DNA from: an uncultured Methanomicrobiales archaeon
GTDB taxonomy: Archaea > Halobacteriota > Methanomicrobia > Methanomicrobiales > Methanospirillaceae
Length of the DNA: 64,000 nt
Reading direction: 5' to 3'
NCBI GenBank assembly: GCA_963697895.1
Contig: OY969100.1
Location: 960,001-1,024,000, forward strand
In this document: piece by piece, positions 5,298 to 40,457 of the stretch
How positions within the stretch are numbered: position 1 is the first letter of the stretch
Layout: each line of letters starts with the position of its first letter
Position numbers and translations under genes: made by a program
The notes under the pieces: model-generated
What the model saw: the letters and a program-made list of their open reading frames with translations, nothing else
What the model was told of the DNA's origin: nothing
Databases searched by the model: none

Positions 5298-6167
5298 GTG
5301 ACCTTCGTGCCGGAGCAAGGAGAGATCTTCCCGAACAAATGTGAAAAGAGTGGTATCAAACCAACAAACCAGATCATGATGCAGCCCAACGCGATCCTCT
5401 GCGGAGATGCACTTACGGTGCTCCGGACTCTTCCTGACGATTCCTTCGCCTGCTGCATCACCAGCCCGCCCTACTGGGACACCCGGTGCAGCGGACTGGG
5501 CGATCAGCTCGGGGAAGAACTCGATTATCAGGATTATATCAGGAACCTCCTGGGGATCTTCCGTGAGGTGCGAAGAAGCCTTGCCCCGGCCGGGACCCTC
5601 TGGCTGGTCATCGGGGATACATATGCAAGCGATGATCGCCGCTGGTGGGAGATGTGCACAACGCTTCCGCCGGGGGAACCCGGTTCCCATCGGGCGCTCC
5701 CGGACGGGTTTAAGGCAAAGGACCTGATGGGAATTCCCTGGCGACTGGCAATGGCGCTGCAGGACGACGGCTGGTATCTCCGGTCCGACATCATCTGGTC
5801 CATTCCGAACCACCCGTCCGAACCGGTCACTGACCGTCCTGCACGAGCCCACGACTATGTATTCCTCTTTGCAAGGTCGGAACAGTATTCATACCATGGA
5901 GACGACGGGGAGACCGCATCCGGGGGAACCGTCTGGGAGATCCCGACCGTTCCCGATCCTCCTATCAATTATGCCGTCCTTCCCGAACCGCTGGTCGAAC
6001 GATGCATGCGGGCCGGGTCCCTGAAGGACGAGGTCGTGCTGGACCCGTTCTTCGGTTCGGGTACCGTGGGCATCGTGGCAAAACGGCTGAAGCGGAGGTA
6101 CGTGGGGATTGAGCTGGACCCGGTCTCCGCCTCCCTGGCGCAGAAGAGGATCCGGGATGGGGTGTAG
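5298..6167 (+). CDS. Site-specific DNA methyltransferase (N4C/N6A, beta class); no adjacent restriction gene; start may be ATG 5376
   Basis: Catalytic TSPPY lies before the SAM-binding DPFFGSGT; GWYLRSDIIW. Confidence 0.9.
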   Translation: MTFVPEQGEIFPNKCEKSGIKPTNQIMMQPNAILCGDALTVLRTLPDDSFACCITSPPYWDTRCSGLGDQLGEELDYQDYIRNLLGIFREVRRSLAPAGTLWLVIGDTYASDDRRWWEMCTTLPPGEPGSHRALPDGFKAKDLMGIPWRLAMALQDDGWYLRSDIIWSIPNHPSEPVTDRPARAHDYVFLFARSEQYSYHGDDGETASGGTVWEIPTVPDPPINYAVLPEPLVERCMRAGSLKDEVVLDPFFGSGTVGIVAKRLKRRYVGIELDPVSASLAQKRIRDGV

Positions 6168-13487: not shown

Positions 13488-13840
13488 ATCACTTCACGCT
13501 GATCCTTATAAGGACGTGGAATAAAACCACGCTGTCGGGTTCCAGGGTCCGATAATACCCGTTTCTTAAAAATCCGGCTGAAGATAAGGAACGGGATAAT
13601 GAACCGATCGATGAGGATTGGCAATGCAACAGGGAAAAGATCAAGGGAACCTGAATACAATTTTTTTCAGGATTCGCGATGACTGTTCCCTTTGCACTTC
13701 GTTTATCGAAGAGATCGTCCCGCTATTTTCATCTCCCTCATCGGGAGCTGTGAATTTTTTCCCCTGATGGATGCCCCGAACAAATTTTCCCCGGAGGGGT
13801 ACAGGATTATCCTTCTGTTTTTTTCTAAAAAATAATAAAG

Positions 13841-13874
13841 TATATATATTATAAAAGATGGAAGACTGTTTCCA
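13841..13874 (+). promoter_or_regulatory. TATA box followed by a NrpR-type operator GGAA-gactgt-TTCC (13860-13873)
   Basis: TATATATATTATAAAA at 13841-13856; exact match to the methanogen nitrogen operator consensus GGAA-N6-TTCC; lies upstream of PII genes. Confidence 0.75.
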
Positions 13875-14043
13875 CAAATTATATTAATAACTATAATCAA
13901 TAGAGTATCGGCGTTCGGTCCCAACCGTAACCGAAAATGCAGAAACTACCGCTCTAAAAAATGTTCTGACCATAATGAGTGGTCAGAGCCGAACAATGTA
14001 CTACCGCGATCGACGGTAAACTCGATCCTGCAAGAGGCTGTCT

Positions 14044-14400
14044 GTGAAATTAATTCGAGCAATTATCAGACCCGAATCCACACAACGGGTGATTGAAGCG
14101 CTGGAGAAAAATAGCATCCATGCCATGACACGGACGAATGTTACCGGGAGGGGCAAGGAGATGGGAATTTCACATGGATCTCTCCGGTATACCGAGATAC
14201 CAAAAGAGATGCTGATGATCGTGCTTCCCGACAGCGATGTGACCAAGGCGGTCAAGGTGATCGAAACATCGGCAAGAACCGGTACAAAGGACAATCCTGC
14301 CGGAGGAAATGTCGGCGATGGAAAGATCTTTGTCTCCGATGTCGAGGAATCGTATACGATCAGAACCGGCGAAAAAATAAGAGAGATCGGACAGGCATGA
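14044..14400 (+). CDS. PII family nitrogen regulator, NifI1-like
   Basis: IRAIIRPE, VTGRGK, Y.EIPKEMLMIV, ARTG...GDGKIFV...YTIRTG. Confidence 0.9.
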   Translation: MKLIRAIIRPESTQRVIEALEKNSIHAMTRTNVTGRGKEMGISHGSLRYTEIPKEMLMIVLPDSDVTKAVKVIETSARTGTKDNPAGGNVGDGKIFVSDVEESYTIRTGEKIREIGQA

Positions 14401-14834
14401 AAGAGATTATTGCAATTATCCGTACCGAATGTGTGGAACCGACAAAGGACGTTCTTGAATCCATCGGTGTAAAGGGGATTACATTTATCAACGGCATCGG
14501 GCGGGGAAGGCAGGGAGGAACAATCCTGACGCCGGATCCGGAGGGCACCCTGCGGCGGAAAGCCGGTGTTCAGATCATGCACCAGCGTGGCATGATCCGT
14601 GATATCGACGATCCAAAATACCACATGCCCGTACAAAAGGAGATCGACCTGGGATTCCTCCCGAAAAAAATGCTCATGATAGTGGTAAATGACGATGAAG
14701 TCTCCCATATTGTCGATGCTCTCATAAAAGTAAACAGGAGCGGGCAGAAGGGTGACGGAAAGATCTTTGTCTGCCCCGTGAATGATGCCATCCGTATAAG
14801 AACCAGAGAACATGGAAATTCGGCACTGTCATAA
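14397..14834 (+). CDS. PII family nitrogen regulator, NifI2-like (long T-loop)
   Basis: MKEIIAIIR, GRGRQ, PKKMLMIVVND, VNRSG.KGDGKIFVCPVNDAIRIRTRE; ATGA overlap with the upstream gene. Confidence 0.9.
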   Translation: MKEIIAIIRTECVEPTKDVLESIGVKGITFINGIGRGRQGGTILTPDPEGTLRRKAGVQIMHQRGMIRDIDDPKYHMPVQKEIDLGFLPKKMLMIVVNDDEVSHIVDALIKVNRSGQKGDGKIFVCPVNDAIRIRTREHGNSALS

Positions 14835-15514: not shown

Positions 15515-15824
15515 AGGCGGGGTGTTGAAGGAGAACGTTCGATCGAACGCGGTAGGCCCTTATTTCTTGGTTTTAATAGGGAACGATAGGCGGTTGTCGT
15601 TTTCCCTGAGGGTGTCCCTTTTCAGCCACTCCGATCCGAGGAATGACATTGGCCGGTACATTGTCTGTGACATGAGTCAAGGGGTCTATCGGTTTAACTC
15701 CTCTTTATAAAGATTTTCGAGCATGCGTAATGGAACAAATGCACGAGAAGTATGTGATGATTTGGTAAAAAGAATCGAGAATCAAACGTTGCAATAATTA
15801 AAATTAAGGGGAATAAAAGGCTCT

Positions 15825-18800
15825 TTATGTAAATTGAAGCTTGGTAGATTTTGTAATTCTTTTTACGATATCCGAAACAATTTCTCGTTCTTCTGATTGT
15901 AAATTACTATAATAATAGTTGGTATTCTTGGTCTCGATTATTTTAATAGCATCTCTAATTGGTTTAATAAGAATTTCATAATCGTTTCCTTCTACCATAA
16001 CAACTTGATCAATCACACCTTTTACCAGATCGATGTTGTTTAAATCAATTATATTTTTTAGGAAGTCCATAATTATCGATTTTATTTTATCTTCTTCTAA
16101 CTTTGGCTCGATAAGTGTTGATTGCTTCAATAGCAATCTTCCATTATGATAATTACCTGAGTTATATTCATTAAATGCCAATCTGAAATATATTTCATTC
16201 ATATCCTCAACAAAATCTTTATCAAATTTATTTAAATTTGTGCCGATTTTATTAATTTCATTCATTGCTTCTCTATTATTATCAACTGAAATATAAGCTT
16301 CAATTAAACATTTTCTTATGTTTGTTTTAATAAATTCATCGCCTTTTTTTTCGATTTCCTTTTCGGCAACCTGTATACATTCTTCGAATTTTTCAGTCTT
16401 AATAAATAGATCTAACACTTGTAAAAGGGCAAAATCATCATTTGGGTTAATATATAGAACTTTTTTAAATAAATTCAAAGATTCTTCATATTCTTTCAGT
16501 TCTTTTAATATTGATGCTTTTAAAGATAAATATTCAATATTGTCGCGCTCCTTTGCCAATAGATCATTTACTAGGGAATATGCTTCATCATATTCCTGAT
16601 TGTCAAATAAGGCTCTACATTTGTATTTTAATACTGAAATGTTATCTGGATTAATCTTTGTTAATTTGTTAAAAATTTCCACTCCTTCTGAGAATTGCTG
16701 ATTGCAACATAATAATAAACCGTAGATTTCAAGATGGTCAACGTTATCCGGTTCAATTTTTACAGAAAGTTGAATCGATTTTAATGCTTCATCTATTCGT
16801 CTTTGTGCGCAGAGAGCCAGGGCTTTATAATATAAAATATTTGAGTTATTTTTATCAATATTTAAATATTCATTAAAAGTTGAAATTGCTTCATCCATTT
16901 TATTTAATCTTAATAAAGCACGTCCCTTACTTTCCAATGCGATACTATTGGACGGATCAATTTCTAGGATTTGATTGGCTATTTGCAGCGCATCGGAAGG
17001 CTGGTTGATTACTTCGAATATATATGCTTTTACTGCGAGTGCAAATATCTGCTCGGGGTCTCTTGTGATTGAATAATTAATGACTTCTAGTGCCTCCGAA
17101 TTCCTATCGAGTTCTATAAGGGCCAGGCTTTTCGTTGCTAATAAAAAGGGCACTAAATCAGATTTCTCCGAATATTTTTCTAATAATTTTTCACAAAGGA
17201 TAAGAACCTCATTTAGTTTTCGCATTCTTAACAGTACAAGACATTTTCGAGCTAAAAACAATTTATTATCTGAATCGATAACAAGGCAATTCTCAATTAT
17301 TTCCAATGCGTTTTCATCTTGTCTTAGTTCTATTAATGCAATTGATTTTAGATTTAATGCTTCAATATCATTGGGATTAACATTTAATACACGGTCTAAC
17401 GATACCAATGCCTCATCATAATTATGCTCTGAAATCATTATCTGGGCGTCTTGAATTATCTTATTACTAATCTTGATTCCGCTATCTTGCAGGATTTTTA
17501 TGTGACTTTCAGCTTTCTCTAATCCTCCTAATTCGATAATCTTCTGTGTTATCTTGGGGATGTATGAGAGGATACATTCTGCAGGTAATGCTTCAGCATA
17601 GTAGCATACATCCTTAATGACGGAACGATCGCCAGCCTGAAGTAATTCAAATTTTTGTTTAAAATATTCTCTCCTCTCCCTTGGTGTATACCATAGTGTT
17701 AAAAATTCAACAAATAGTGATATCCTTTTTCTTCCAAGCGGTTGTCGCATCTCACGCCAAAATCTAAATAAGCGCTCTCGTACTTCGTAGTACGTTCTTT
17801 TTCTAATCCGATGAGAAATAATATACCTCTCACCCTCGAGTCTACGAAGCTGTGAATTAACTGTTTTAATATCTATTCTAGACTTTTCTGAGATTTCTGT
17901 TGGGGTTAGAGGATTTGGCGAAGATATTATTACATCAAAGATTTTTCTTTTTTGACCACTAAGCATTTGAAATATTTCTTGGTAATAGGGGGTATGCTCA
18001 TCTACCATTTTAAGGAAAATATTTTCAATTTTTTCCAAATCCCCTCGGGTTATTATCTCATAAATCAATATTACGAGTCTTGGACTACCACCGATTAGAT
18101 GAGACAATCCAGTAATTTTTGAGTTTAATTGCCTTTGATTTTTTATGAAATCTTCATTCCCTTCAATGAGGGCAATTCTTTTCATCAGCTCTAAAATATC
18201 TTTCTTTTGTAATTCCTTAAGGTAAAACACCTGGAAAAAATTATAGAATGGTTCTTCATGATTTGATATTGCGGGAAAAATAATCGGTGCGGATGCAATG
18301 ATTGAAATGTTATTGGTTTCTTGAAACACAGATCTTAATTTCTGAAGTTCATTTCTATCTAATTGCCTGAACAATTCATGCAGATTTTCAATAAAAATAA
18401 AAAATTCTTTATCCTCCTGAAGGGAAATTTCATTTATTCTTTGAACAGCCGCATTGAAAATTGAATTTTCATCCTTTAATTTCAAAAGATCGGTTATATC
18501 TTCCTCATATAGTTCCAGTATTCGCAGAAAGAAATCCGATGCATTAATTATTGAATATTCTTCTTCAGAAAATTTAACTGGGATTACTTCTGATCCAAGT
18601 CCTTTCATTAGTTCATAATAGATTAGAGTCATGAAATGGGATTTCCCAATCCCTCTGGGACCAACTAATAGGAAAAATCGTGTTGTTTTATTGCGAACTG
18701 ATGTTTTTATTTCACCCATTATGTTTGAAAATAGTTTGTCTCTTCCCACAAATAGGTCATATAAATCCTGTTCTTTCATATTCTCTGGAGAATAGCGATA

Positions 18801-18827
18801 GAAAATTACATCCTTAGATGCTGGCAT
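15825..18827 (-). CDS. STAND/AAA-type ATPase with winged HTH and many TPR repeats (1000 aa)
   Basis: Walker A GPRGIGKS; Walker B-like FIFIENL; GGSPR; wHTH LTPTEISEKSRIDIKTVNSQLRRL; repeated ALxIDP/NP TPR units; AT-rich. Confidence 0.85.
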   Translation of the reverse strand: MPASKDVIFYRYSPENMKEQDLYDLFVGRDKLFSNIMGEIKTSVRNKTTRFFLLVGPRGIGKSHFMTLIYYELMKGLGSEVIPVKFSEEEYSIINASDFFLRILELYEEDITDLLKLKDENSIFNAAVQRINEISLQEDKEFFIFIENLHELFRQLDRNELQKLRSVFQETNNISIIASAPIIFPAISNHEEPFYNFFQVFYLKELQKKDILELMKRIALIEGNEDFIKNQRQLNSKITGLSHLIGGSPRLVILIYEIITRGDLEKIENIFLKMVDEHTPYYQEIFQMLSGQKRKIFDVIISSPNPLTPTEISEKSRIDIKTVNSQLRRLEGERYIISHRIRKRTYYEVRERLFRFWREMRQPLGRKRISLFVEFLTLWYTPRERREYFKQKFELLQAGDRSVIKDVCYYAEALPAECILSYIPKITQKIIELGGLEKAESHIKILQDSGIKISNKIIQDAQIMISEHNYDEALVSLDRVLNVNPNDIEALNLKSIALIELRQDENALEIIENCLVIDSDNKLFLARKCLVLLRMRKLNEVLILCEKLLEKYSEKSDLVPFLLATKSLALIELDRNSEALEVINYSITRDPEQIFALAVKAYIFEVINQPSDALQIANQILEIDPSNSIALESKGRALLRLNKMDEAISTFNEYLNIDKNNSNILYYKALALCAQRRIDEALKSIQLSVKIEPDNVDHLEIYGLLLCCNQQFSEGVEIFNKLTKINPDNISVLKYKCRALFDNQEYDEAYSLVNDLLAKERDNIEYLSLKASILKELKEYEESLNLFKKVLYINPNDDFALLQVLDLFIKTEKFEECIQVAEKEIEKKGDEFIKTNIRKCLIEAYISVDNNREAMNEINKIGTNLNKFDKDFVEDMNEIYFRLAFNEYNSGNYHNGRLLLKQSTLIEPKLEEDKIKSIIMDFLKNIIDLNNIDLVKGVIDQVVMVEGNDYEILIKPIRDAIKIIETKNTNYYYSNLQSEEREIVSDIVKRITKSTKLQFT

Positions 18828-19998
18828 GATATTTCCTCCAATAATCTTTGAGCATTTTGGAATAAAATCTTAAATTGTCGTTTTTCACTTTTTCAATATA
18901 GAAATCATTACTTAATTCTGAAATCAAATTATTAAATGCATCAGGGTCATTTTCTCCAGTTTCGGATAAAAAAACTCCAAAAGCAAGATGCATCGGGTAA
19001 TCTGACACTTTCGAGATTTCACTTAAGACTAACAAAATTGCATTCCTATATTTCGTGCGGTAATAATCATTTATTCGACGATAATAGTGTTCAAAATAAT
19101 GGATACCTTCAGCTCCAAGAATACGATTTTCATATATAGCAACGATTTCCTCTTCATTAATATCACGTTCATAGATTTCAAATTCTTCAGTAACTGCACT
19201 TAGCATTATCATTAAAAAATATGGAATGTACGGCAACCCAATACATTGAAGAATAGTTTTCCCTAGGTTTTCAGAATAATAGATGCCTTTTTCTTTAAAA
19301 ACCTGATAAATGATGTTTAAAGCGACAGATTCTTCGAAACCCTCTACTTTCACCCTTTTAACATCGTTAAGAACCGCGACACCACCCAAATCCCTTATCG
19401 TACTATCGATGCTAACTGAACCGGCTAACACAAATTTTAAATTTAGATTTGTTTGGCGAATTCCTCTAAACCAATTTAAAAATTTATTTGCATCAGTTTT
19501 TTGCATTTTTTGTATAGCTATAGGAAATTCATCCATTAAGATTACAACATCGCTATCGATTTCTCTAACTAATTTGGAAATTTCAAGTGCTTTCGCACGC
19601 CATACTTTATCAATATCTTCCTCTTTATTGTCTCGTAATTTGGCATTAAAGTCAGATAAACCGATTTCTTGAATATTTTCTTTTATTATTGATGGTGTCC
19701 TTTTTAATGAAGATAAGATTTTAGTTTTTCGACTAATAAATTTGCTTTCAGTAATTGCCATTATTAATTCTGTTATTAATTCCAAAGGCGTTGTAACACG
19801 TTCAACATCGATAAAAATACACGGGATCTTTTTCTCTTGTAAATCGGTCTCAACTTTTCGCATTATTGAGGTTTTACCAAATCGTCTTGGGGAAACTAAT
19901 AATATACTGTTTTTTTCTAGAAGACTCTCAATATGAAGCACCAATTTTTCTCTATCAATAAAATCAACGCCTGTTGCGGGACTCCCTACTGGAAACAT
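18814..19998 (-). CDS. Archaeal-ATPase-type P-loop NTPase with a probable C-terminal winged helix
   Basis: FIDREK, Walker A SPRRFGKTS, Walker B VILMDEFP, FVLAGS; 14-bp overlap with the downstream gene. Confidence 0.85.
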   Translation of the reverse strand: MFPVGSPATGVDFIDREKLVLHIESLLEKNSILLVSPRRFGKTSIMRKVETDLQEKKIPCIFIDVERVTTPLELITELIMAITESKFISRKTKILSSLKRTPSIIKENIQEIGLSDFNAKLRDNKEEDIDKVWRAKALEISKLVREIDSDVVILMDEFPIAIQKMQKTDANKFLNWFRGIRQTNLNLKFVLAGSVSIDSTIRDLGGVAVLNDVKRVKVEGFEESVALNIIYQVFKEKGIYYSENLGKTILQCIGLPYIPYFLMIMLSAVTEEFEIYERDINEEEIVAIYENRILGAEGIHYFEHYYRRINDYYRTKYRNAILLVLSEISKVSDYPMHLAFGVFLSETGENDPDAFNNLISELSNDFYIEKVKNDNLRFYSKMLKDYWRKYHASI

Positions 19999-20016
19999 AA
20001 ATCGTCAATTTATTTG

Positions 20017-20049
20017 TATAACGTTTATGTTATATAACAATTTTGTTAT
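20017..20049. promoter_or_regulatory. Two overlapping palindromes TATAAC-N6-GTTAT(A) over the promoter of the NTPase pair
   Basis: TATAAC-gtttat-GTTATA (20017-20034) and TATAAC-aatttt-GTTAT (20033-20049), 19-51 bp upstream of ATG 19998. Confidence 0.55.
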
Positions 20050-20297
20050 CTATTACCTTCGGAAGGGGCGAAAGAGGAATTTTGACATTTAACAAAATGA
20101 AAGATCAAATTTGCTCATAGAACTTATGCCTGAGTAGGTATTTTTTTTGAAATCTTTTCCATATAATTTTCTCGAAAGAAATTACATGTACAGTAAAAAC
20201 TCCCCTTATCCCGGGGGTTCTCTACGATAAAAGGGATAAAAATTTCTTTTTCATAAAAGCTTCAAACGAACCGAAAAATCCCAAAGATTCCCCTCCC

Positions 20298-22091
20298 TCA
20301 CCAGTTGATCGTGTATACGATCTTCCCGCCCTTGAATATCGAAATTAACCCCCCGCTCTGCGAGACCACGACCCCGATCGATCTCGTGACCCGGGTGATG
20401 CTGGCGACCGACAGGTGCCGGGAACCCATCCCTCCGGGGAGATTTACCTGGCTCATGTCCACGGTGATGTACCGGCCGGCCGCCTCGACCATCCCGGTGC
20501 CGGTTACAATAAACGCCCCGTCCAGCTGGGCGAACTCCTTGATATGTCCCCGGATCCCGGGATCGGTAATCTGCCGTTCGGTCTCATCGTGACCCTGGAA
20601 CGGGTTTAGGATCAACTGTTTCGAATGGTCGAGGACGTGTGTTGTGTCGCCGACCACAAACGCGGTCCCGACGGCCTGCCCCTCGCGTCCTTCCCGTGCG
20701 ATCTCCACGGCGATCTGGATGATCGAATCGAGTACGGCAGGATCGACGTCGGTCCCGGAACAGATCAACTCCAGCTCCTCCCGTAACGGCAGGTTTTTCG
20801 GCATCGGACCCGCTCTCGGGGAAGAAGTCTTCGGGAGAGCCACCGCAGGAGGAGAACCACTCCTCCCGTGAATGATCCGCTGGGCGACGATCCCGATGAG
20901 CACGACGACGATCGCCGTGACGAGGATGACGATGAAGAGCGGCGTGTTGGTACCGGGCGGCGGGCTTCCTGTTGCCGGTCCCGGGGGTGTGGGAGTCTCC
21001 TCCTTCAGGTCCAGGATGATCCGCTTGGTGCTCGACTGGCCGTCGGACTGGTTCCCGGTTATGGCGATGGTGTAGGTACCCGGGCTGGAGTACCGGTGCG
21101 TTACGGGGAGATCGGAAGCATTCGTGGTGTTTCCGTCATCCCAGTCGACATTCACCGAGACGATGGTGACGCCGGGTGAGCCGGGATTGAGGTTCCCGTT
21201 CAGCGTGACGTTCAACCCGTCGACGACCGGTTCGAGGAGAGTGAGGACCGGTGGACCCGACGGTATGCCCAGTCCGCCCGGGGCCGAGGTGTTCTGCGTC
21301 GGGGGAGGCGTTTCGGGTATTACCGGCTGCTCGACGGTGATGTTCGCGGTCTTCGTCACGTTCTGCCCGTCGGACTGGATCGCGGTGATCGAGAGGGTGT
21401 AGGTGCCGGCGGCGGAGTACTCGTGGGTTACCGGGAGACCGGGAGTATCCGTGACGGTCCCGTCATTCCAGTCGACATTCACCGATGCGATCGTTACGTT
21501 CGGGGATCCCGGGCTGCTATTCCCGTTCAATGTGACGTTCAGATCCTCGACGACCGGCTCGAGGAAGGTGAGGACCGGGGGACCCGCCGGGGCCGGGGTG
21601 GTCTGGGTCGTGGGAAGGACGACCGGCTCCTCAACAGAGATGTTCGCGGTCTTCGTCACGTTCTGCCCGTCGGACTGGAATGCAGTGATCGAGAGGGTGT
21701 AGTTGCCGGTAGTGCTGTACATATGCGAGTACGGGAACCCGTGGAACTCCGGCGTGCTGTTGTCCCCCCATTCCCAGCGGATACTCTCTATGGTCACGTT
21801 CGCCGAGCCCGGAGACGCTGTCCCGTTCACGGTACTGGTGAGATTTTCAACCCGGGGGGTGTCGAGGGTAAGGACCGGGGGAGGGGTGACGGCGACAATC
21901 GTGTTCTCTGTGGTCGGGGTGGCTGTGGGAACCGGTGTCGTAGGCTGGCTGGTAACTCCGTTCGTCGTGACCGTCGAGGTGGCGTTGAGCGTGGTCTCCG
22001 CGATGACAACACCCGGCAGTACAAGGAGGATAACGCATAGAACGGCAGTGATCAGCCGTAATCCAAAAGCCCTGTCTCGTTCCTGACGCAT
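20298..22091 (-). CDS. Membrane-anchored diadenylate cyclase: signal peptide, 3 PKD-like repeats, TM helix, DacZ-type DAC (DisA_N) domain
   Basis: EGREG..VGTAFVVGD, NPFQGH, KEFAQLDGAF, GSRH, VSQSGG; three W.WGD/DWND...H.Y...G.YT..IT repeats; TM LFIVILVTAIVVVLIGIVA. Confidence 0.88.
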   Translation of the reverse strand: MRQERDRAFGLRLITAVLCVILLVLPGVVIAETTLNATSTVTTNGVTSQPTTPVPTATPTTENTIVAVTPPPVLTLDTPRVENLTSTVNGTASPGSANVTIESIRWEWGDNSTPEFHGFPYSHMYSTTGNYTLSITAFQSDGQNVTKTANISVEEPVVLPTTQTTPAPAGPPVLTFLEPVVEDLNVTLNGNSSPGSPNVTIASVNVDWNDGTVTDTPGLPVTHEYSAAGTYTLSITAIQSDGQNVTKTANITVEQPVIPETPPPTQNTSAPGGLGIPSGPPVLTLLEPVVDGLNVTLNGNLNPGSPGVTIVSVNVDWDDGNTTNASDLPVTHRYSSPGTYTIAITGNQSDGQSSTKRIILDLKEETPTPPGPATGSPPPGTNTPLFIVILVTAIVVVLIGIVAQRIIHGRSGSPPAVALPKTSSPRAGPMPKNLPLREELELICSGTDVDPAVLDSIIQIAVEIAREGREGQAVGTAFVVGDTTHVLDHSKQLILNPFQGHDETERQITDPGIRGHIKEFAQLDGAFIVTGTGMVEAAGRYITVDMSQVNLPGGMGSRHLSVASITRVTRSIGVVVSQSGGLISIFKGGKIVYTINW

Positions 22092-26343: not shown

Positions 26344-26682
26344 CGAGACGGTAACCGCCGATTCTCTCCGGCCACCCCTGTCAGTCCCGTACGGAACCGA
26401 CATCGTCCAATATCCATGATACGGAACCGGTCAAGGAGAGACGGGCGAAGATGTTATGATCGTGAATTTAGGATCACGTGGTTCACAGTCAGGGTATGGA
26501 ATGAGGCGTATTCTTTTTTCATTCGGATAATGGAACAGAATCTTCAGCAAGAGAACCCATAGCATCGTTCGCGTCTCCGCGGTCTGGAATTTCCGAAAAA
26601 AACTCAGAACATCGCACTCATAGCGCTATTTCTATAAATACGGAAAAGGATACTACCGTATGCAATTGATGAGGCCTTGTCT

Positions 26683-28003
26683 ATGAACGTCTCGAGGATG
26701 TGGCTCATCGATATCCTGGACCGGCTCCGGTCGACCTACATCTTCGTGCCGGCCGTGATGATCGCGATCGCCGTCCCGCTCGCACACCTCGTCACGTATC
26801 TCGACGAGGTGCTCCCCCGTTCCCTCTTCGAGGCCCTCTGGTATTTTTTTCATATCAGCCCGGGTAACCTGATCTCCAATCTCGTCGCCTTTTCGAGCAC
26901 CGAGCTCGGGGTGATGGGGGTGGTCTTCTCCGTCACCCTGGTCCCATTGACCACCGCGTCGGCCCAGTACGGGACGATCCTTCTCCGTGCCTTCCTCCGG
27001 GATATCCGGGTCCAGATCGTCCTCGGGATGTTCGCAGCCTCGATCATGTTCAATATCAGTACCGTCCTGATTGTCTCCCGGCCCTCGTATGGCGTCGAGA
27101 TCCCGGTCTTATCCGGGACAGCGGCCCTGGCATTCTTCGTCCTCGACCTCTTCGCCCTGATCTATTTCTTCCATCACGTCACTTCGGGGTTGCAGACCTC
27201 CACCATCATCTCCCGGCTCGGCAGCGAAGTGAACCGGGCGATCGAACAGGAAGAGCTGCCGGGGACACCGGGAAGTACCCCCTGAGATCGCCCGGGAGAA
27301 AGAGGACGCGATCGCCCGGGAGGGGGTTCCGGTCGGCTCCGGAGGGTTCGGCTATATCCGCTCGATCGATTACCTCCGCCTGATGCAGATCGCCGGGCGG
27401 CATAAACTGGTCATCACCGTCCCGTGTACCGCGGGGGACTTCATCGGGCCCGGGGACACCCTGCTCCGTGCCTGGCCGGAAATCTCCGACCCGGGGGTTG
27501 TGCGGGCGGTCCGGGGCTGTTTCATGCTCGGGAAATACCGGACGATGCTGCAGGACCCCGAATTCGGGATCATCCAGCTGGTGAACATCGCCGCCCGGGC
27601 GGCGGATAACGATCCCTCCATCCCGGTGATGGTGCTGAACCAGATCGGCGTTGCCCTGGAGATCCGGGCAGAACGCGGGATCTTCTCCCCGTACCGGCAC
27701 GACCAGGCAGGATCCCTCCGGATGATCATGAAGATCCGCACGTTCGACCAGTTGATGGACTCGTCCTTCGACCTCATCCGGTACTACACCCCGGATAATA
27801 CCCATATCATCACGGCGATGCTCAACACGATCGGCCGGATCGGACCGCATGCAGGCTCCGACGGGATCCGCGAGGTCCTCCTTCACCATGCACAGCTGAT
27901 CGAGGGTGAGAGTATCCCCCTGGTCTCCTCCGACCACGACCGGCAGCTGGTCCGGCAGTCGTACGAGACGGCGGTCAGGGCGATCGGCCTGCCGGAGACC
28001 TGA
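26683..28003 (+). CDS. DUF2254-like membrane protein, with a +1 frameshift near 27270
   Basis: VFSVTLVPL..AS.QY...LR.FLRD; after removing one base the frame runs through GYIRSID...QDPEFGIIQLVNIAARA..NDP. Confidence 0.8.
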
Positions 28004-38292: not shown

Positions 38293-38727
38293 ATGACACG
38301 GTACTGGATCGCGGTGGCATCGAAAAACCACGTGATGCGGGGAGTGGCTCATGGATTCGCCCAGTCCGGGCATGGGAAGCGGTCCGGCATCGCACGGATG
38401 CACCAGGGCGACCGGATCCTTTACTATTCGCCGAAGGTGGAATACGAAGGGAAGGAGCCGCTTCATGCGTTCACCGCGATGGGGGAGGTCGCGGACGAGG
38501 AGATCTTCCAGGTCGAGGAGAGCCCGGACTGGAAACCCTTCCGGAGGAGAGTCCGGTATCTGTGGACCGGTGAGGTCCGGATCGAGCCGCTTATCGGGGA
38601 GTTGTCCTTTATTAAAAACAAAGCCAAATGGGGATCCGTCTTCCGGTTCGGCCTCGTGGAAATTCCGAAGGAAGATTTCGAGCGGATTGTCGCGGAATTG
38701 GGGGACCGGGATCCGGTTATGCGGTGA
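38293..38727 (+). CDS. EVE domain protein
   Basis: YWIAVASKNHV.RG...GFAQ..HGK......M..GD.ILYYSP...PFRR.V. Confidence 0.9.
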   Translation: MTRYWIAVASKNHVMRGVAHGFAQSGHGKRSGIARMHQGDRILYYSPKVEYEGKEPLHAFTAMGEVADEEIFQVEESPDWKPFRRRVRYLWTGEVRIEPLIGELSFIKNKAKWGSVFRFGLVEIPKEDFERIVAELGDRDPVMR

Positions 38728-38764
38728 ATTAGTTTTATCATACTGCCCATTGAAACGACGTCTT

Positions 38765-39538
38765 ATGGATAGCGAACTGCGTGACAAATTCACCGGGTTA
38801 TGGCTGGATTATTTTGAAGGATCGGAGCTGCCGATTACGTTCGGAATAGGAAACGCCCCCGGAACTGCACAAAAGGCACCGGTACCCAAAGGCTGGAAGT
38901 GCCTGGTCTGCGATCTGGCCAGGATCAGAAAAGGTGTCGCGCTAGCCTTTGATCAGGAATCACTCTCCTGCAGCGGGGCGAAATTTTTCCTGGGCTTCAC
39001 GACGGAACGAACTCCGGAATTTCGTTATTTCCTTTCTTCCGGGAAACCGGGGGTAATAGAAGGAGAGCGGTATAAGCAGACTCCTGAAATCGTGGATGAA
39101 GTAAGCCGGCACGCGGAACACATTCCCGCGGAGGGTAAATGCTATACCTTTAAACGATGGGATCAGCTGGCCGAAGATGATGCCCCTGAAGTCGTAATCT
39201 TCTTTGCACGGCCGGAAGTTATCTCTGGCCTCTTCACGCTCGCAAATTTCGACCAAGTCGACCCGAACGGGGGTGTCATCTGCCCCTTCAGTTCGGGTTG
39301 CGGATCGATCATCTATTATCCGTGGCTCGAGCAGCAGAAGGAGCACCCGAAGGCAGTTCTCGGCATGTTCGATCCATCGGCACGTCCTTGTGTAATGGTC
39401 GATGTCCTGACCATGGCCATCCCGATGAAGAAATTGGTGAAGATGATAGGATACATGGAGGAGAGTTTCCTGATCACCGGGACATGGGAAAAGGTGAGAA
39501 AGAAGATCAGGAAGAGTGCGGAGATTCATACACGGTGA
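38765..39538 (+). CDS. DUF169 domain protein
   Basis: LSCSGA...LGF, EGERYK, PEVVIFFA.P...SGL, G.FDPSAR. Confidence 0.85.
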   Translation: MDSELRDKFTGLWLDYFEGSELPITFGIGNAPGTAQKAPVPKGWKCLVCDLARIRKGVALAFDQESLSCSGAKFFLGFTTERTPEFRYFLSSGKPGVIEGERYKQTPEIVDEVSRHAEHIPAEGKCYTFKRWDQLAEDDAPEVVIFFARPEVISGLFTLANFDQVDPNGGVICPFSSGCGSIIYYPWLEQQKEHPKAVLGMFDPSARPCVMVDVLTMAIPMKKLVKMIGYMEESFLITGTWEKVRKKIRKSAEIHTR

Positions 39539-39629
39539 GCATGTTACCGGCTTAAAACCGGTGAGTGTCGAATTGAACCCGAATGGAATAACATTCACGG
39601 CTACGGACGAAATAAAGGATGAACTGAAC

Positions 39630-40457
39630 ATGAAGAGTATTGTCGCAGAGAAACTCCGGCTCGATTACGAACCCGTGGCAATTCTCTGGAGCGATTCACG
39701 ACCGGAAGGGGCATTGCAAATAAAACCGCATGCGCAGACCTGCATCATGCCGTTTTTTGCCCAGGTTGCGACCAGAGGAAAAACCGTCGTGTTCGACCGG
39801 GAGTCATACGGCTGCCCGGGTGCCCGGGCAGGACTTGGTTTTGGCAACGGCTACTACGATGCGTTCCGTGGTGCCGGTATCGAATTTATGGCTGCATTCT
39901 TCGTAAAAGGTGCAGAGAGCAGCAGGGACCCGGAGGCCTATTCTGCAACCGTGCAATGTATTCCGGAACGGGAGCGTGCAAAGTTTATAGAAGGGGAACG
40001 CCTCCACAGGGATACGGATAAGGCAAAGAGGTTCATGACCGGGGATCTCCCGATCACGGATATCGCGGAGAGGTATGTGATCTTCACCCCGTTACGTAAG
40101 GTAAAACCCGGGGAGTTCCCGGTCGTGGTGATTTTTGTTGCAAACCCGTTGCAGATCACCGGACTGGTGACCCTGGTCGGAGCAATCCGCGAGGGGACCG
40201 ATCCCGTGCGGGTCCCGCCCATGGCTGCCTGCCAGCAGATCGGCGCATTCGTGTACGACGAGGCGAAAAAGGAGCATCCGAGGGCAGTGCTCGGGTACAC
40301 GGACCTCGCAGCACGGGCAAATGTAGGCAAGACCCTGCCGGTGAATGTGTTCACGTTTGCCGTCCCCTTTTCGCTCTTTGAGGAGATGGAGGAGGAAGCA
40401 GAAAACGGGGTCTTCGACGGCCCGATCTGGAAAGAACTTGCCGGAGGGGAGGAATGA
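39630..40457 (+). CDS. DUF169 domain protein (second copy)
   Basis: YGCPGA..GLGFG, EGER, PVVVIFVANP.Q..GL, AACQQI, LGYTDLAAR. Confidence 0.85.
   Translation: MKSIVAEKLRLDYEPVAILWSDSRPEGALQIKPHAQTCIMPFFAQVATRGKTVVFDRESYGCPGARAGLGFGNGYYDAFRGAGIEFMAAFFVKGAESSRDPEAYSATVQCIPERERAKFIEGERLHRDTDKAKRFMTGDLPITDIAERYVIFTPLRKVKPGEFPVVVIFVANPLQITGLVTLVGAIREGTDPVRVPPMAACQQIGAFVYDEAKKEHPRAVLGYTDLAARANVGKTLPVNVFTFAVPFSLFEEMEEEAENGVFDGPIWKELAGGEE

Follow-up and report, generated by a model that had tools for sequence, protein, structure and literature searches.

A mobile pair of paralogous ATPase genes with a putative private operator: a possible sensor-helper switch of methanogens and bacteria

The window analysed here, 64,000 nucleotides from an uncultured Methanomicrobiales archaeon of the family Methanospirillaceae (assembly GCA_963697895.1, contig OY969100.1, positions 960,001 to 1,024,000), contains an AT-rich island with two overlapping ATPase genes, termed gene A and gene B. 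Judging from the sequences, both genes and a tandem palindromic operator lying over the core promoter appear to form a self-contained mobile unit, the cassette. As a tentative explanation, to which we assign a probability of about 45%, we propose an autoregulated mobile sensor-helper ATP switch with DNA binding as its output. Gene B would encode a ligand-sensing, ATP-locked sensor and gene A a hydrolysing helper, which would either assemble with B or reset it. Bound to the tandem sites, the winged helices of the proteins would block the core promoter, at the TATA box in archaea and at the -10 element in bacteria, resulting in self-repression. A protein or peptide ligand bound to the tetratricopeptide repeats (TPRs) of B would then alter the oligomeric and the DNA-binding state. 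The A-B complex, its binding to the operator, the repression and the ligand are predictions of this model, while ATP depletion as an output is speculation.

Organization and Horizontal Transfer of the Cassette

The two open reading frames (ORFs) are located on the minus strand and overlap by 14 nt. Gene A (394 amino acids) spans positions 18814-19998 and gene B (1000 amino acids) positions 15825-18827. All 500-nt windows between 16000 and 19999 showed a GC content of 0.26-0.37, compared to 0.58-0.63 in the flanks. The host genome consists of one contig of 2.09 Mb with a mean GC content of 0.538, while the A-B segment has about 31% GC. The first-pass annotation of this DNA had described an AT-rich island with two overlapping genes, which agrees with these values, and the motifs it had quoted were all found in the gene products (SPRRFGKT and ILMDE in A, GPRGIGKS and FIFIENL in B). 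The features of the cassette are as follows.

15834-20048, minus strand: whole cassette of operator/promoter, gene A and gene B (alignment to locus L120, AT-richness)
20013-20054, minus strand: tandem array of three 10-bp sites, putative operator (sequence, tandem-pair search)
18814-19998, minus strand: gene A (P0001, 394 amino acids), archaeal-type AAA+/ORC-STAND-like ATPase with helical and winged-helix C-terminus (ORF, Pfam, AlphaFold2)
19867-19893, minus strand: gene A Walker A, S36-S44, SPRRFGKTS (motif, alignment)
19528-19542, minus strand: gene A Walker B, I153-E157, ILMDE, canonical (motif, alignment)
15825-18827, minus strand: gene B (P0002, 1000 amino acids), NTPase, helical domain, winged helix-turn-helix, linker, TPR array and C-terminal domain
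18639-18662, minus strand: gene B Walker A, G56-S63, GPRGIGKS (motif, family alignment)
18384-18404, minus strand: gene B altered Walker B, F142-N148, FFIFIEN (motif, family alignment)
17745-17921, minus strand: gene B winged helix-turn-helix, residues 303-361, MarR/ArsR-like, followed by a conserved basic stretch
16245-17420, minus strand: gene B TPR array, residues 470-861, about 12 repeats, putative sensor (Pfam, AlphaFold2)
15828-16220, minus strand: gene B all-helical C-terminal domain, residues 870-1000, no family match (AlphaFold2, alignments)

The borders of the cassette were obtained by comparison with L120, the locus of the nearest relative. Using blastn, the window and L120 aligned at positions 15834-20048 only, with 76% identity over 4237 bp, and tblastx yielded nothing convincing between the flanks of the two loci. 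The L120 cassette has a GC content of 0.29-0.34, its flanks of 0.40-0.66. As the homology is confined to this segment and the flanks are unrelated, operator, gene A and gene B make up the transferred unit, which was inserted at different sites in two GC-rich hosts. Horizontal acquisition of the two genes as a unit had been proposed earlier and is well supported by this limited homology together with the absence of gene A from all 154 sampled genomes of the host's own family besides the host itself. Synonymous sites were saturated between the two cassettes. We infer that the two hosts received their copies separately from low-GC donors, and not in a single recent event. In a quick maximum likelihood tree (support by the Shimodaira-Hasegawa-like approximate likelihood ratio test only, midpoint root, 77 of 82 sequences kept after 5 truncated or over-long ones had been dropped) the host protein P0001 and its L120 counterpart were placed on their own long branch, which formed a trichotomy with a Methanoculleus clade and a Methanosarcinales/Methanoperedens clade.

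Neither an integrase nor a target duplication was convincingly found at the island borders, and the window contains no tRNA gene. The flanking PKD-DAC gene, which has orthologues in the host's family, did not reveal a simple empty site; in genome G077 the GNAT gene lies on the other side. A 29-nt inverted repeat (15651-15679 and 20449-20477, 76% complementary) brackets the island and may be due to chance, as its right arm is located inside the PKD-DAC gene. Adjoining the cassette, positions 13500-14813 represent a second stretch of lowered GC content (0.41-0.48), which may be foreign DNA and harbors a 270-amino-acid ORF (14001-14813, minus strand) without a Pfam match.

Conservation and Distribution of the Gene Pair

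Homologues of A and B were found in Methanoculleus, Methanofollis, Methanosarcina, Methanoperedens, ANME-2 and related archaea, several of them with adjacent locus tags. Among the host's relatives within its order are genomes with Methanoculleus- and Methanofollis-type homologues. In a sample of 301 genomes of the host's class gene A was detected in 28, among them 25 of 46 genomes of one family (f2) and 2 of 11 of another (f5). The N-terminus of B directly followed A in 27 of these 28 loci; the remaining locus stops at a contig edge. A scan of genome contigs with a single protein as query found nothing, while a wide scan based on alignments, with one genome per species, identified 258 relatives, of which the best 80 loci were analysed. 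These belong to methanogens, Altiarchaeales and, at about 30% identity, several bacterial phyla (Acidobacteriota, Chloroflexota, Thermotogota, Nitrospirota, Armatimonadota, Abditibacteriota, Bipolaricaulota and others). Gene B was found directly downstream of gene A in 77 of the 80 loci, in archaea as well as in bacteria. The three loci without a B call were L062, L073, which stops at a contig end, and L118, where B was not found; on L062, a contig of 3 kb listed as L017 in the class sample, tblastn had detected the partner minus its first 52 residues. In the methanogen clade, 39 of 42 loci show an overlap of 14 or 17 nt between the two genes; in 35 others the distance from A to B ranges from -37 to +19 nt. 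No third conserved gene was observed beside the pair beyond close kin. As the pair recurs in 77 of 80 loci and the L120 homology ends at 15834 and 20048, very close to the limits set in the first-pass annotation (15825 and 20049), the A-B unit is not a chance arrangement, and the coupling suggested in that annotation extends far beyond the host.

The size of the family depends on the cutoff: phmmer yielded 1631 cluster representatives at E<=1e-3, 706 at 1e-10 and 81 at 1e-30. The cassette is chromosomal and single-copy in nearly all cases. Despite an identity of 25-27%, the pair was also found on plasmids of Clostridium tagluense and Segatella copri. The Segatella copri plasmid copy (L122, 4853-8033) has a partner of 298 amino acids, a WYL-domain gene directly upstream and a DUF262 gene nearby. 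Two tandem cassettes in one genome were observed in a Methanoculleus-type locus (L036, identical with L072, 9968-18948). The first comprises a full gene A and a TPR-bearing B of 937 amino acids, the second an A fragment and a TPR-less B of 554 amino acids, directly followed by an AAA_14-DUF4143 (PDC-S01) gene.

Alignment of the profiles of both families (hhalign, alignment A1 versus A3) gave a probability of 91% and an E value of 1e-6 over 302 columns, from the nucleotide-binding domain (NBD) through the winged helix. Within this module A and B are, by their sequences, distant paralogues.

Gene A Encodes a Canonical ATPase

For gene A the Pfam search gave 31.9 bits for ATPase_2/PF01637 (cutoff 33.2) and 28.7 bits for AAA-ATPase_like (cutoff 26.1); in precomputed Pfam data PF01637 is assigned to the gene A product and to most of its relatives. 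The AlphaFold2 model (predicted local distance difference test, pLDDT, 83; predicted template modelling score, pTM, 0.81) has a C-terminal winged helix besides its P-loop domain and helical domain; residues 90-125 are predicted to be disordered. In a Foldseek search the top folds in the PDB were 2qen and 2fna (E values of 2.6e-12 and 2.7e-11, template modelling (TM) scores of 0.61-0.69), followed by Orc1/Cdc6 (TM scores of 0.45-0.51) and then by CED-4 and plant NLR resistosome chains. The profile match to 2fna had an E value of 2.7e-5. Among 55 sequences the Walker A residues P37, R38, R39, G41, K42, T43 and S44, the Walker B residues D156 and E157, and R16 of the motif FIDRE before the P-loop were invariant.

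A nuclease in the C-terminus of gene A had been considered on the basis of a link between PF09820 and PD-(D/E)XK proteins given in PMC1913061. It was ruled out, as the AlphaFold2 model of this region shows helices and a winged helix and no nuclease fold. Ten distant A-like proteins (P0291, P0293, P0308, P0310, P0319, P0321, P0339, P0345, P0355 and P0361) are about 490-514 amino acids long and possess an extra N-terminal region of about 120 amino acids, which is poorly conserved and gave no Pfam match.

Gene B Combines an Altered ATPase With a Winged Helix and TPRs

The AlphaFold2 model of gene B comprises an NBD (residues 19-230), a helical domain (231-300), a winged helix (303-361), a helical linker (366-466), about 12 TPRs (470-861) and an all-helical domain (870-992). 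The pLDDT was 85, and due to a pTM of 0.45 the arrangement of the domains relative to each other is unreliable. Pfam gave 31.9 bits for AAA_16 with the full-length protein (cutoff 32.6) and 35.1 with residues 1-300 alone, many TPR families including TPR-S, 22.3 bits for nSTAND1 (cutoff 27.1) and 21.0 bits for the ORC-CDC6-like family PF24389 (cutoff 27). For 29 scanned NTPases of the gene B family matches were obtained to AAA_16 (29), nSTAND1 (26), ATPase_2 (23), ORC-CDC6-like (22), BrxC_BrxD (9) and NACHT (6), which by sequence places this NTPase at the border of STAND and ORC. Against PDB profiles the N-terminus gave generic AAA+ P-loop matches only, and Foldseek with the whole gene B model found TPR proteins alone and nothing on the NTPase. 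STAND cores carry a motif of the hhGRExE type before the P-loop and a GxP motif in the helical domain. Gene B has FVGRD before the P-loop, and G246, G247 and P249 of its helical domain are kept in 72, 73 and 71 of 73 family members, respectively. According to the AlphaFold2 models and the fold matches, both proteins possess the STAND-type core of NBD, helical domain and winged helix together with Walker A and B motifs.

The two proteins differ at the Walker B motif, and the gene A product, unlike that of gene B, carries no sensor. The residue after its first acidic position is the catalytic glutamate of AAA+ and STAND enzymes. In the gene B family, the Walker A lysine K62 is kept in 72 of 73 members from archaea and bacteria, and position 147 retains the first acidic residue (E in 38, D in 35 members), while position 148, the site of the catalytic glutamate, is asparagine in 71 of 73. 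In alignment A2 both E147 and N148 were invariant. Given this asparagine and the invariant D156 and E157 of gene A, gene B is predicted to bind nucleotide and yet to hydrolyse it poorly, and gene A would be the active enzyme. What had been noticed as an altered Walker B motif in the host protein is therefore a trait of the whole family.

The winged helix-turn-helix of gene B is strongly conserved. Within the region of its recognition helix Q326 was found in 73 and R329 in 72 of 73 members, and in the basic stretch past the wing W357 in 73 and R361 in 70. Bacterial homologues match MarR_2 or LexA_DNA_bind at this position. Against PDB profiles TPR-less partners gave weak matches to winged helix-turn-helix proteins, including the archaeal segregation protein AspA (E value of 0.012). 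The winged helix is the sole candidate output domain recognised in the sequences. The C-terminal domain contains the invariant residues N892, A960, Y972, Y973 and E979, and no score of at least 0.9 was obtained for it against the protein atlas.

Across the family gene B varies in length from 465 to 1051 amino acids. The TPR array is missing from about 20 partners of 517-566 amino acids, all of them Methanoculleus-type, which retain the C-terminal domain and align to residues 884-997; TPRs were detected by Pfam in 11 of 13 distant partners. Gene B and its L120 partner are both exactly 1000 amino acids long. Their identity is 82% in the NBD, 94% in the helical domain and winged helix-turn-helix, the most conserved region, 85% in the linker, 44-56% in the four quarters of the TPR array and 76% in the C-terminal domain. 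The comparison of TPR and NTPase divergence suggested in the first-pass annotation showed non-synonymous divergence (dN) of 0.33-0.41 for the TPRs and of 0.04-0.10 for the core of NTPase and winged helix-turn-helix, i.e., the TPRs diverge 4-10 times faster. The ratios to synonymous divergence (dN/dS) were 0.23-0.38 and 0.03-0.08, respectively, and are rough values, as dS was saturated (about 1-1.8). With dN/dS below 1, this comparison did not show positive selection on the TPRs.

A Tandem Palindromic Array Precedes Gene A

The approximately 50 nt upstream of gene A are the only non-coding DNA common to the window and L120. They hold an array of a 10-bp palindrome with a period of 16 bp, with sites starting at 20013, 20029 and 20045. 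The middle site is a perfect GTTATATAAC; within it lies a TATA-like TTATATAA, about 30 nt before the gene A ATG. The same arrangement was found nearly everywhere in the 100 nt upstream of the loci, with 2-4 copies separated by A/T-rich spacers of 6 nt. The palindrome is GTTATATAAC in methanogens and GTTGTACAAC or GTTGTATAAC in most bacteria. Archaeal arrays overlap the TATA-like TTATATAA. Bacterial arrays lie between the -35 box and the ribosome-binding site; they begin right past a TTGACA box, and the palindrome itself provides a TATAAC or TACAAC hexamer at the distance of a -10 element. Of the plasmid copies, the one from Segatella copri is preceded by repeats of the GTATATAAC type with the 16-bp period, the one from Clostridium by a different inverted repeat.

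Using a strict rule of at most one mismatch per site and a spacing of 15-17, a tandem pair was found between -160 and +30 of the gene A start in 56 of the 80 loci. Only 2 further tandem pairs were present in the 1.18 Mb of the loci, both just upstream of mis-set gene A starts (L071, L119), and none of 4000 shuffled upstream windows contained one. Counting single sites, the 80 upstream windows had none in 4 cases, one in 20, two in 48, three in 7 and four in 1. Allowing up to 2 mismatches, the array of the cassette was the only tandem pair in the 2.09 Mb of the host genome. Similarly, the tandem pattern occurred at a single place in each of 5 bacterial genomes (4.7-7.7 Mb), by its coordinates just upstream of gene A, and the reversed pattern, used as control, gave no match in these 5 genomes. 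As the array is unique to the promoter of the cassette in 6 of 6 genomes, it travels with the pair and is not the signal of a regulon. The array is thus a putative autoregulatory operator which would occlude the core promoter. It lends indirect support to the DNA-binding output that had been offered earlier as one of two possible outputs, the binding itself being predicted.

One other exact copy of the 10-bp palindrome exists in the host genome (G000:C1:495725). It has 18 consecutive bases in common with the operator of the cassette, lies within a frame of 1197 codons with beta-helix-like repeats and could be due to chance or a second binding site.

Genomic Neighborhood

In the window, the island is surrounded by genes for PKD-domain proteins, a PKD-DAC protein, a GNAT acetyltransferase, a flavodoxin-like protein, acyl-CoA synthetases, PAS proteins and MFS transporters, a neighbourhood of metabolism and surface proteins. 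Ten contexts of 20 kb from relatives were inspected, 8 from the genus Methanoculleus (g19) and 2 of the Methanofollis type. Strong defence matches adjoined the pair in 7 of the 8 Methanoculleus loci, whose genomes are kin and not independent, while the two Methanofollis-type loci had ABC-type matches only (0 of 2 with defence genes). A Type I restriction-modification system is located directly downstream of the pair in L030 and L038 and nearby in L032. Furthermore, L035 contains a cytosine methylase, a large helicase and a Schlafen-type helicase, L038 a GmrSD-like gene and L036 a HerA-like ATPase. One side of the Methanoculleus loci consists of conserved housekeeping genes (QRPTase and amidohydrolase, or a B3_4 gene), the other is variable, resembling an island hotspot. 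The plasmid copy of Segatella copri adjoins the DUF262 and WYL genes mentioned above.

An AAA_14-DUF4143 gene (PDC-S01) was found directly downstream of the pair in L036, L037 and L039, and such an ATPase may be a lineage-specific third component. It follows a TPR-less B on the same strand in L037 (6632-7948) and L039 (7086-8513), and likewise in L049, L051 and L071. In L097 (Thermotogae) an AAA_14-DUF4143 gene is located 1.5 kb upstream of A.

Elsewhere in the window, two consecutive plus-strand ORFs (26677-27285 and 27383-28003) match residues 1-170 and 214-366 of the DUF2254 membrane-protein profile, which suggests a gene that is split or frameshifted. On the plus strand, positions 38351-40457 hold a pair of adjacent DUF169 paralogues that overlap.

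Comparison With Known Systems

The archaeal PF01637 ATPases SSO1545 (2fna) and PAB2304 (2qen) share with gene A the fold of NBD, helical domain and winged helix. These are single proteins of unknown function, whereas gene A is paired with a longer paralogue and preceded by an operator array. Regulators of the MalT, IniR and LAL kind resemble the cassette: an ATP-switch NTPase is joined to a helical-repeat sensor and a DNA-binding module, and oligomerisation takes place on repeated sites. IniR is composed of an SSO1545-like AAA+ domain, a sensor like domain III of MalT and a helix-turn-helix, according to PMC5760070. The regulators of this kind consist of one chain with a C-terminal LuxR-type helix-turn-helix and a canonical NTPase and control other operons. 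The cassette, in contrast, encodes two paralogous chains, has its DNA-binding candidate, the winged helix, in the NTPase module and carries the Walker B asparagine in B; Pfam found no LuxR-type domain in either protein.

Avs and NLR receptors, including paired sensor/helper NLRs, have a STAND-like core and fast-evolving C-terminal repeats like the cassette. In paired NLRs a degenerate sensor ATPase acts with a canonical helper, analogous to B and A. The cassette differs by lacking an N-terminal nuclease, protease, TIR or SIR2 effector and by its predicted autoregulatory operator. Orc1/Cdc6 proteins and their origin recognition boxes share the AAA+ and winged-helix fold with gene A and have repeated dyads beside the gene; they bind DNA as paralogous heterodimers (2qby is among the fold matches of gene A). 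However, the cassette is also bacterial, its repeats are inside the promoter, its B protein carries TPRs and its PF24389 match is below the cutoff.

Evaluation of the Sensor-Helper Switch and Its Alternatives

Several observations weigh against the proposed switch or a defence role for it. Apart from a lone N6/N4 DNA methylase 10 kb off (5298-6167, plus strand, no restriction partner among the scanned ORFs), no defence gene was found among the neighbours in the window. PADLOC-DB 2.0.0 did not match any system. Its best scores, PDC-M54A for gene A (E value of 0.0025) and mad8 (5.4e-5) and the winged helix-turn-helix of Csa3 (9.2e-5) for gene B, were partial and generic matches to the P-loop or the winged helix-turn-helix. 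No effector-type domain was detected in A or B by Pfam, NCBIfam and PADLOC, nor by Pfam in any of 13 distant partners, so that the earlier remark on a lacking effector holds for the family as sampled; NCBIfam gave nothing for gene A and partial TPR-type matches for gene B. For loci outside Methanoculleus, 36 with long flanks were chosen from the 80 and 29 were scanned (266 ORFs within 6 kb, cutoff of E<=1e-20). Some match was obtained for 14 of the 29, and 6 of these were judged plausible (PDC-S27, BrxP-like, PDC-S06, PDC-S03, PDC-S01, DndC) and 8 generic (sigma-54 activators, a kinase, ABC/AAA ATPases and partial matches). As counts from these loci alone, the figures speak for neither an enrichment nor an absence of defence neighbours. 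The cassette was found in 5 of 72,556 plasmid records and in no phage record. The fast divergence of the TPRs could reflect relaxed constraint, as dN/dS was below 1 and dS saturated. Moreover, neither the recognition helix in B nor the winged helix in A varied clearly in step with the type of the operator core (ATAT versus GTAC), and the conservation of the array may partly be explained by the promoter elements inside the palindrome.

The biological role was weighed separately. A conflict or defence sensor or an addiction-type module appears the foremost candidate, if short of even odds; a plain signal-responsive regulator is considerably less probable and a mobile-element maintenance module rather improbable, with something else taking the remainder.

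Among the alternatives, an ordinary STAND transcription factor of the MalT, IniR or LAL kind, split over two paralogous chains, is doubtful. A metabolite or peptide bound to the TPRs would cause ATP-dependent oligomerisation on DNA and switch on host genes. An NTPase joined to a repeat sensor and a DNA-binding fold fits this explanation, and most loci outside Methanoculleus, including that of the host, are situated among ordinary genes. However, the restriction of the tandem operator to the cassette's own promoter in 6 of 6 genomes and the lack of any neighbour gene conserved as a target argue against it, as do the patchy distribution, with no other occurrence among 154 sampled genomes of the host's family, and the movement of the cassette alone. 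The position of the operator over the core promoter also suits repression more than activation.

An antiviral STAND system without effector, in which the TPRs would recognise a viral protein and the A-B oligomer would halt growth by runaway ATP hydrolysis or by coating DNA, is in our view unlikely. Its sporadic, mobile and AT-rich nature and the fast-evolving TPRs of variable length are consistent with such a system, as is the likeness of a degenerate sensor and a canonical helper to paired NLRs. In Methanoculleus the pairs are adjoined by genes for Type I restriction-modification, GmrSD-like proteins, a Schlafen helicase, a cytosine methylase and AAA_14-DUF4143 ATPases, and gene B matches nSTAND1 and TPR-S, families named for conflict systems. 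On the other side stand the missing PADLOC match and effector, the lack of a general link to defence islands and the roughly 20 partners that have no TPR sensor. Of the candidate immune system put forward in the first-pass annotation, the Methanoculleus part is favourable (7 of 8 loci), whereas the lack of a PADLOC match, the 6 of 29 loci elsewhere and the neighbours in the window are not; an immune role is possible.

A broader conflict version of the sensor-helper switch, which would be a new class of innate immune or conflict module spanning archaea and bacteria, is likewise improbable. Here the hydrolysis-dead sensor and the helper would repress at the operator with the 16-bp period until the TPRs bind an invader protein, which would turn the A-B repressor complex into an effector oligomer. 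Driven by ATP, this oligomer would act by nucleoprotein assembly or by draining ATP.

The cassette could also be the chromosomal remnant of a mobile-element maintenance module, either an ORC-like initiator pair on iteron-like repeats or a partition ATPase with a centromere-binding winged helix-turn-helix, which we consider very unlikely. The Orc1/Cdc6-like fold of gene A, tandem repeats immediately before the operon, an arrangement also seen at origins and centromeres, the weak AspA match of the B winged helix and one plasmid copy about 3 kb from a replication-initiation gene would agree with it. Yet the cassette is nearly always chromosomal and rare in plasmid records, no integrase, relaxase or replicon genes travel with it, the bacterial repeats have the position of promoter elements described above, and neither replication nor partition has an obvious use for a TPR sensor. 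Finally, a toxin-antitoxin-like addiction pair, in which one ATPase would neutralise a growth-arresting partner under an autoregulated promoter, would account for two overlapping genes, a palindromic operator, mobility and sporadic distribution, but is hardly to be expected, as the proteins greatly exceed known type II pairs in size and both are paralogous NTPases without a recognisable toxin fold. The maintenance and addiction readings account for the repeats and the form of the cassette and for little more.

Significance

A literature search on the family, the Pfam and COG names, nSTAND1, the structural homologues and the motif found no description of the pair or its operator. Passages of a preprint surveying STAND proteins (10.64898/2026.01.04.697583) do not mention such a pair, and its supplementary family tables might list the family. 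The cassette assembles familiar parts, a STAND/ORC-like NTPase, a winged helix and TPRs, into an unfamiliar unit. It is an obligate pair of paralogous ATPases, one partner of which has a naturally trapped Walker B motif, and a private operator travels with it, conserved from methanogens to Acidobacteriota, its core matching the archaeal TATA box and the bacterial -10 element. If the conflict version applies, the cassette would be a prokaryotic counterpart of paired sensor/helper NLRs without a separate killing domain. If it serves ordinary autoregulated signalling, a clean annotation would result for a family of 706 representatives (E<=1e-10) currently labelled 'ATP-binding protein' or 'TPR protein'. 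As a small, self-contained cassette of 4.2 kb with sharply defined parts, its mechanism is directly testable, and it could reveal how STAND-type switches work without a fused effector.

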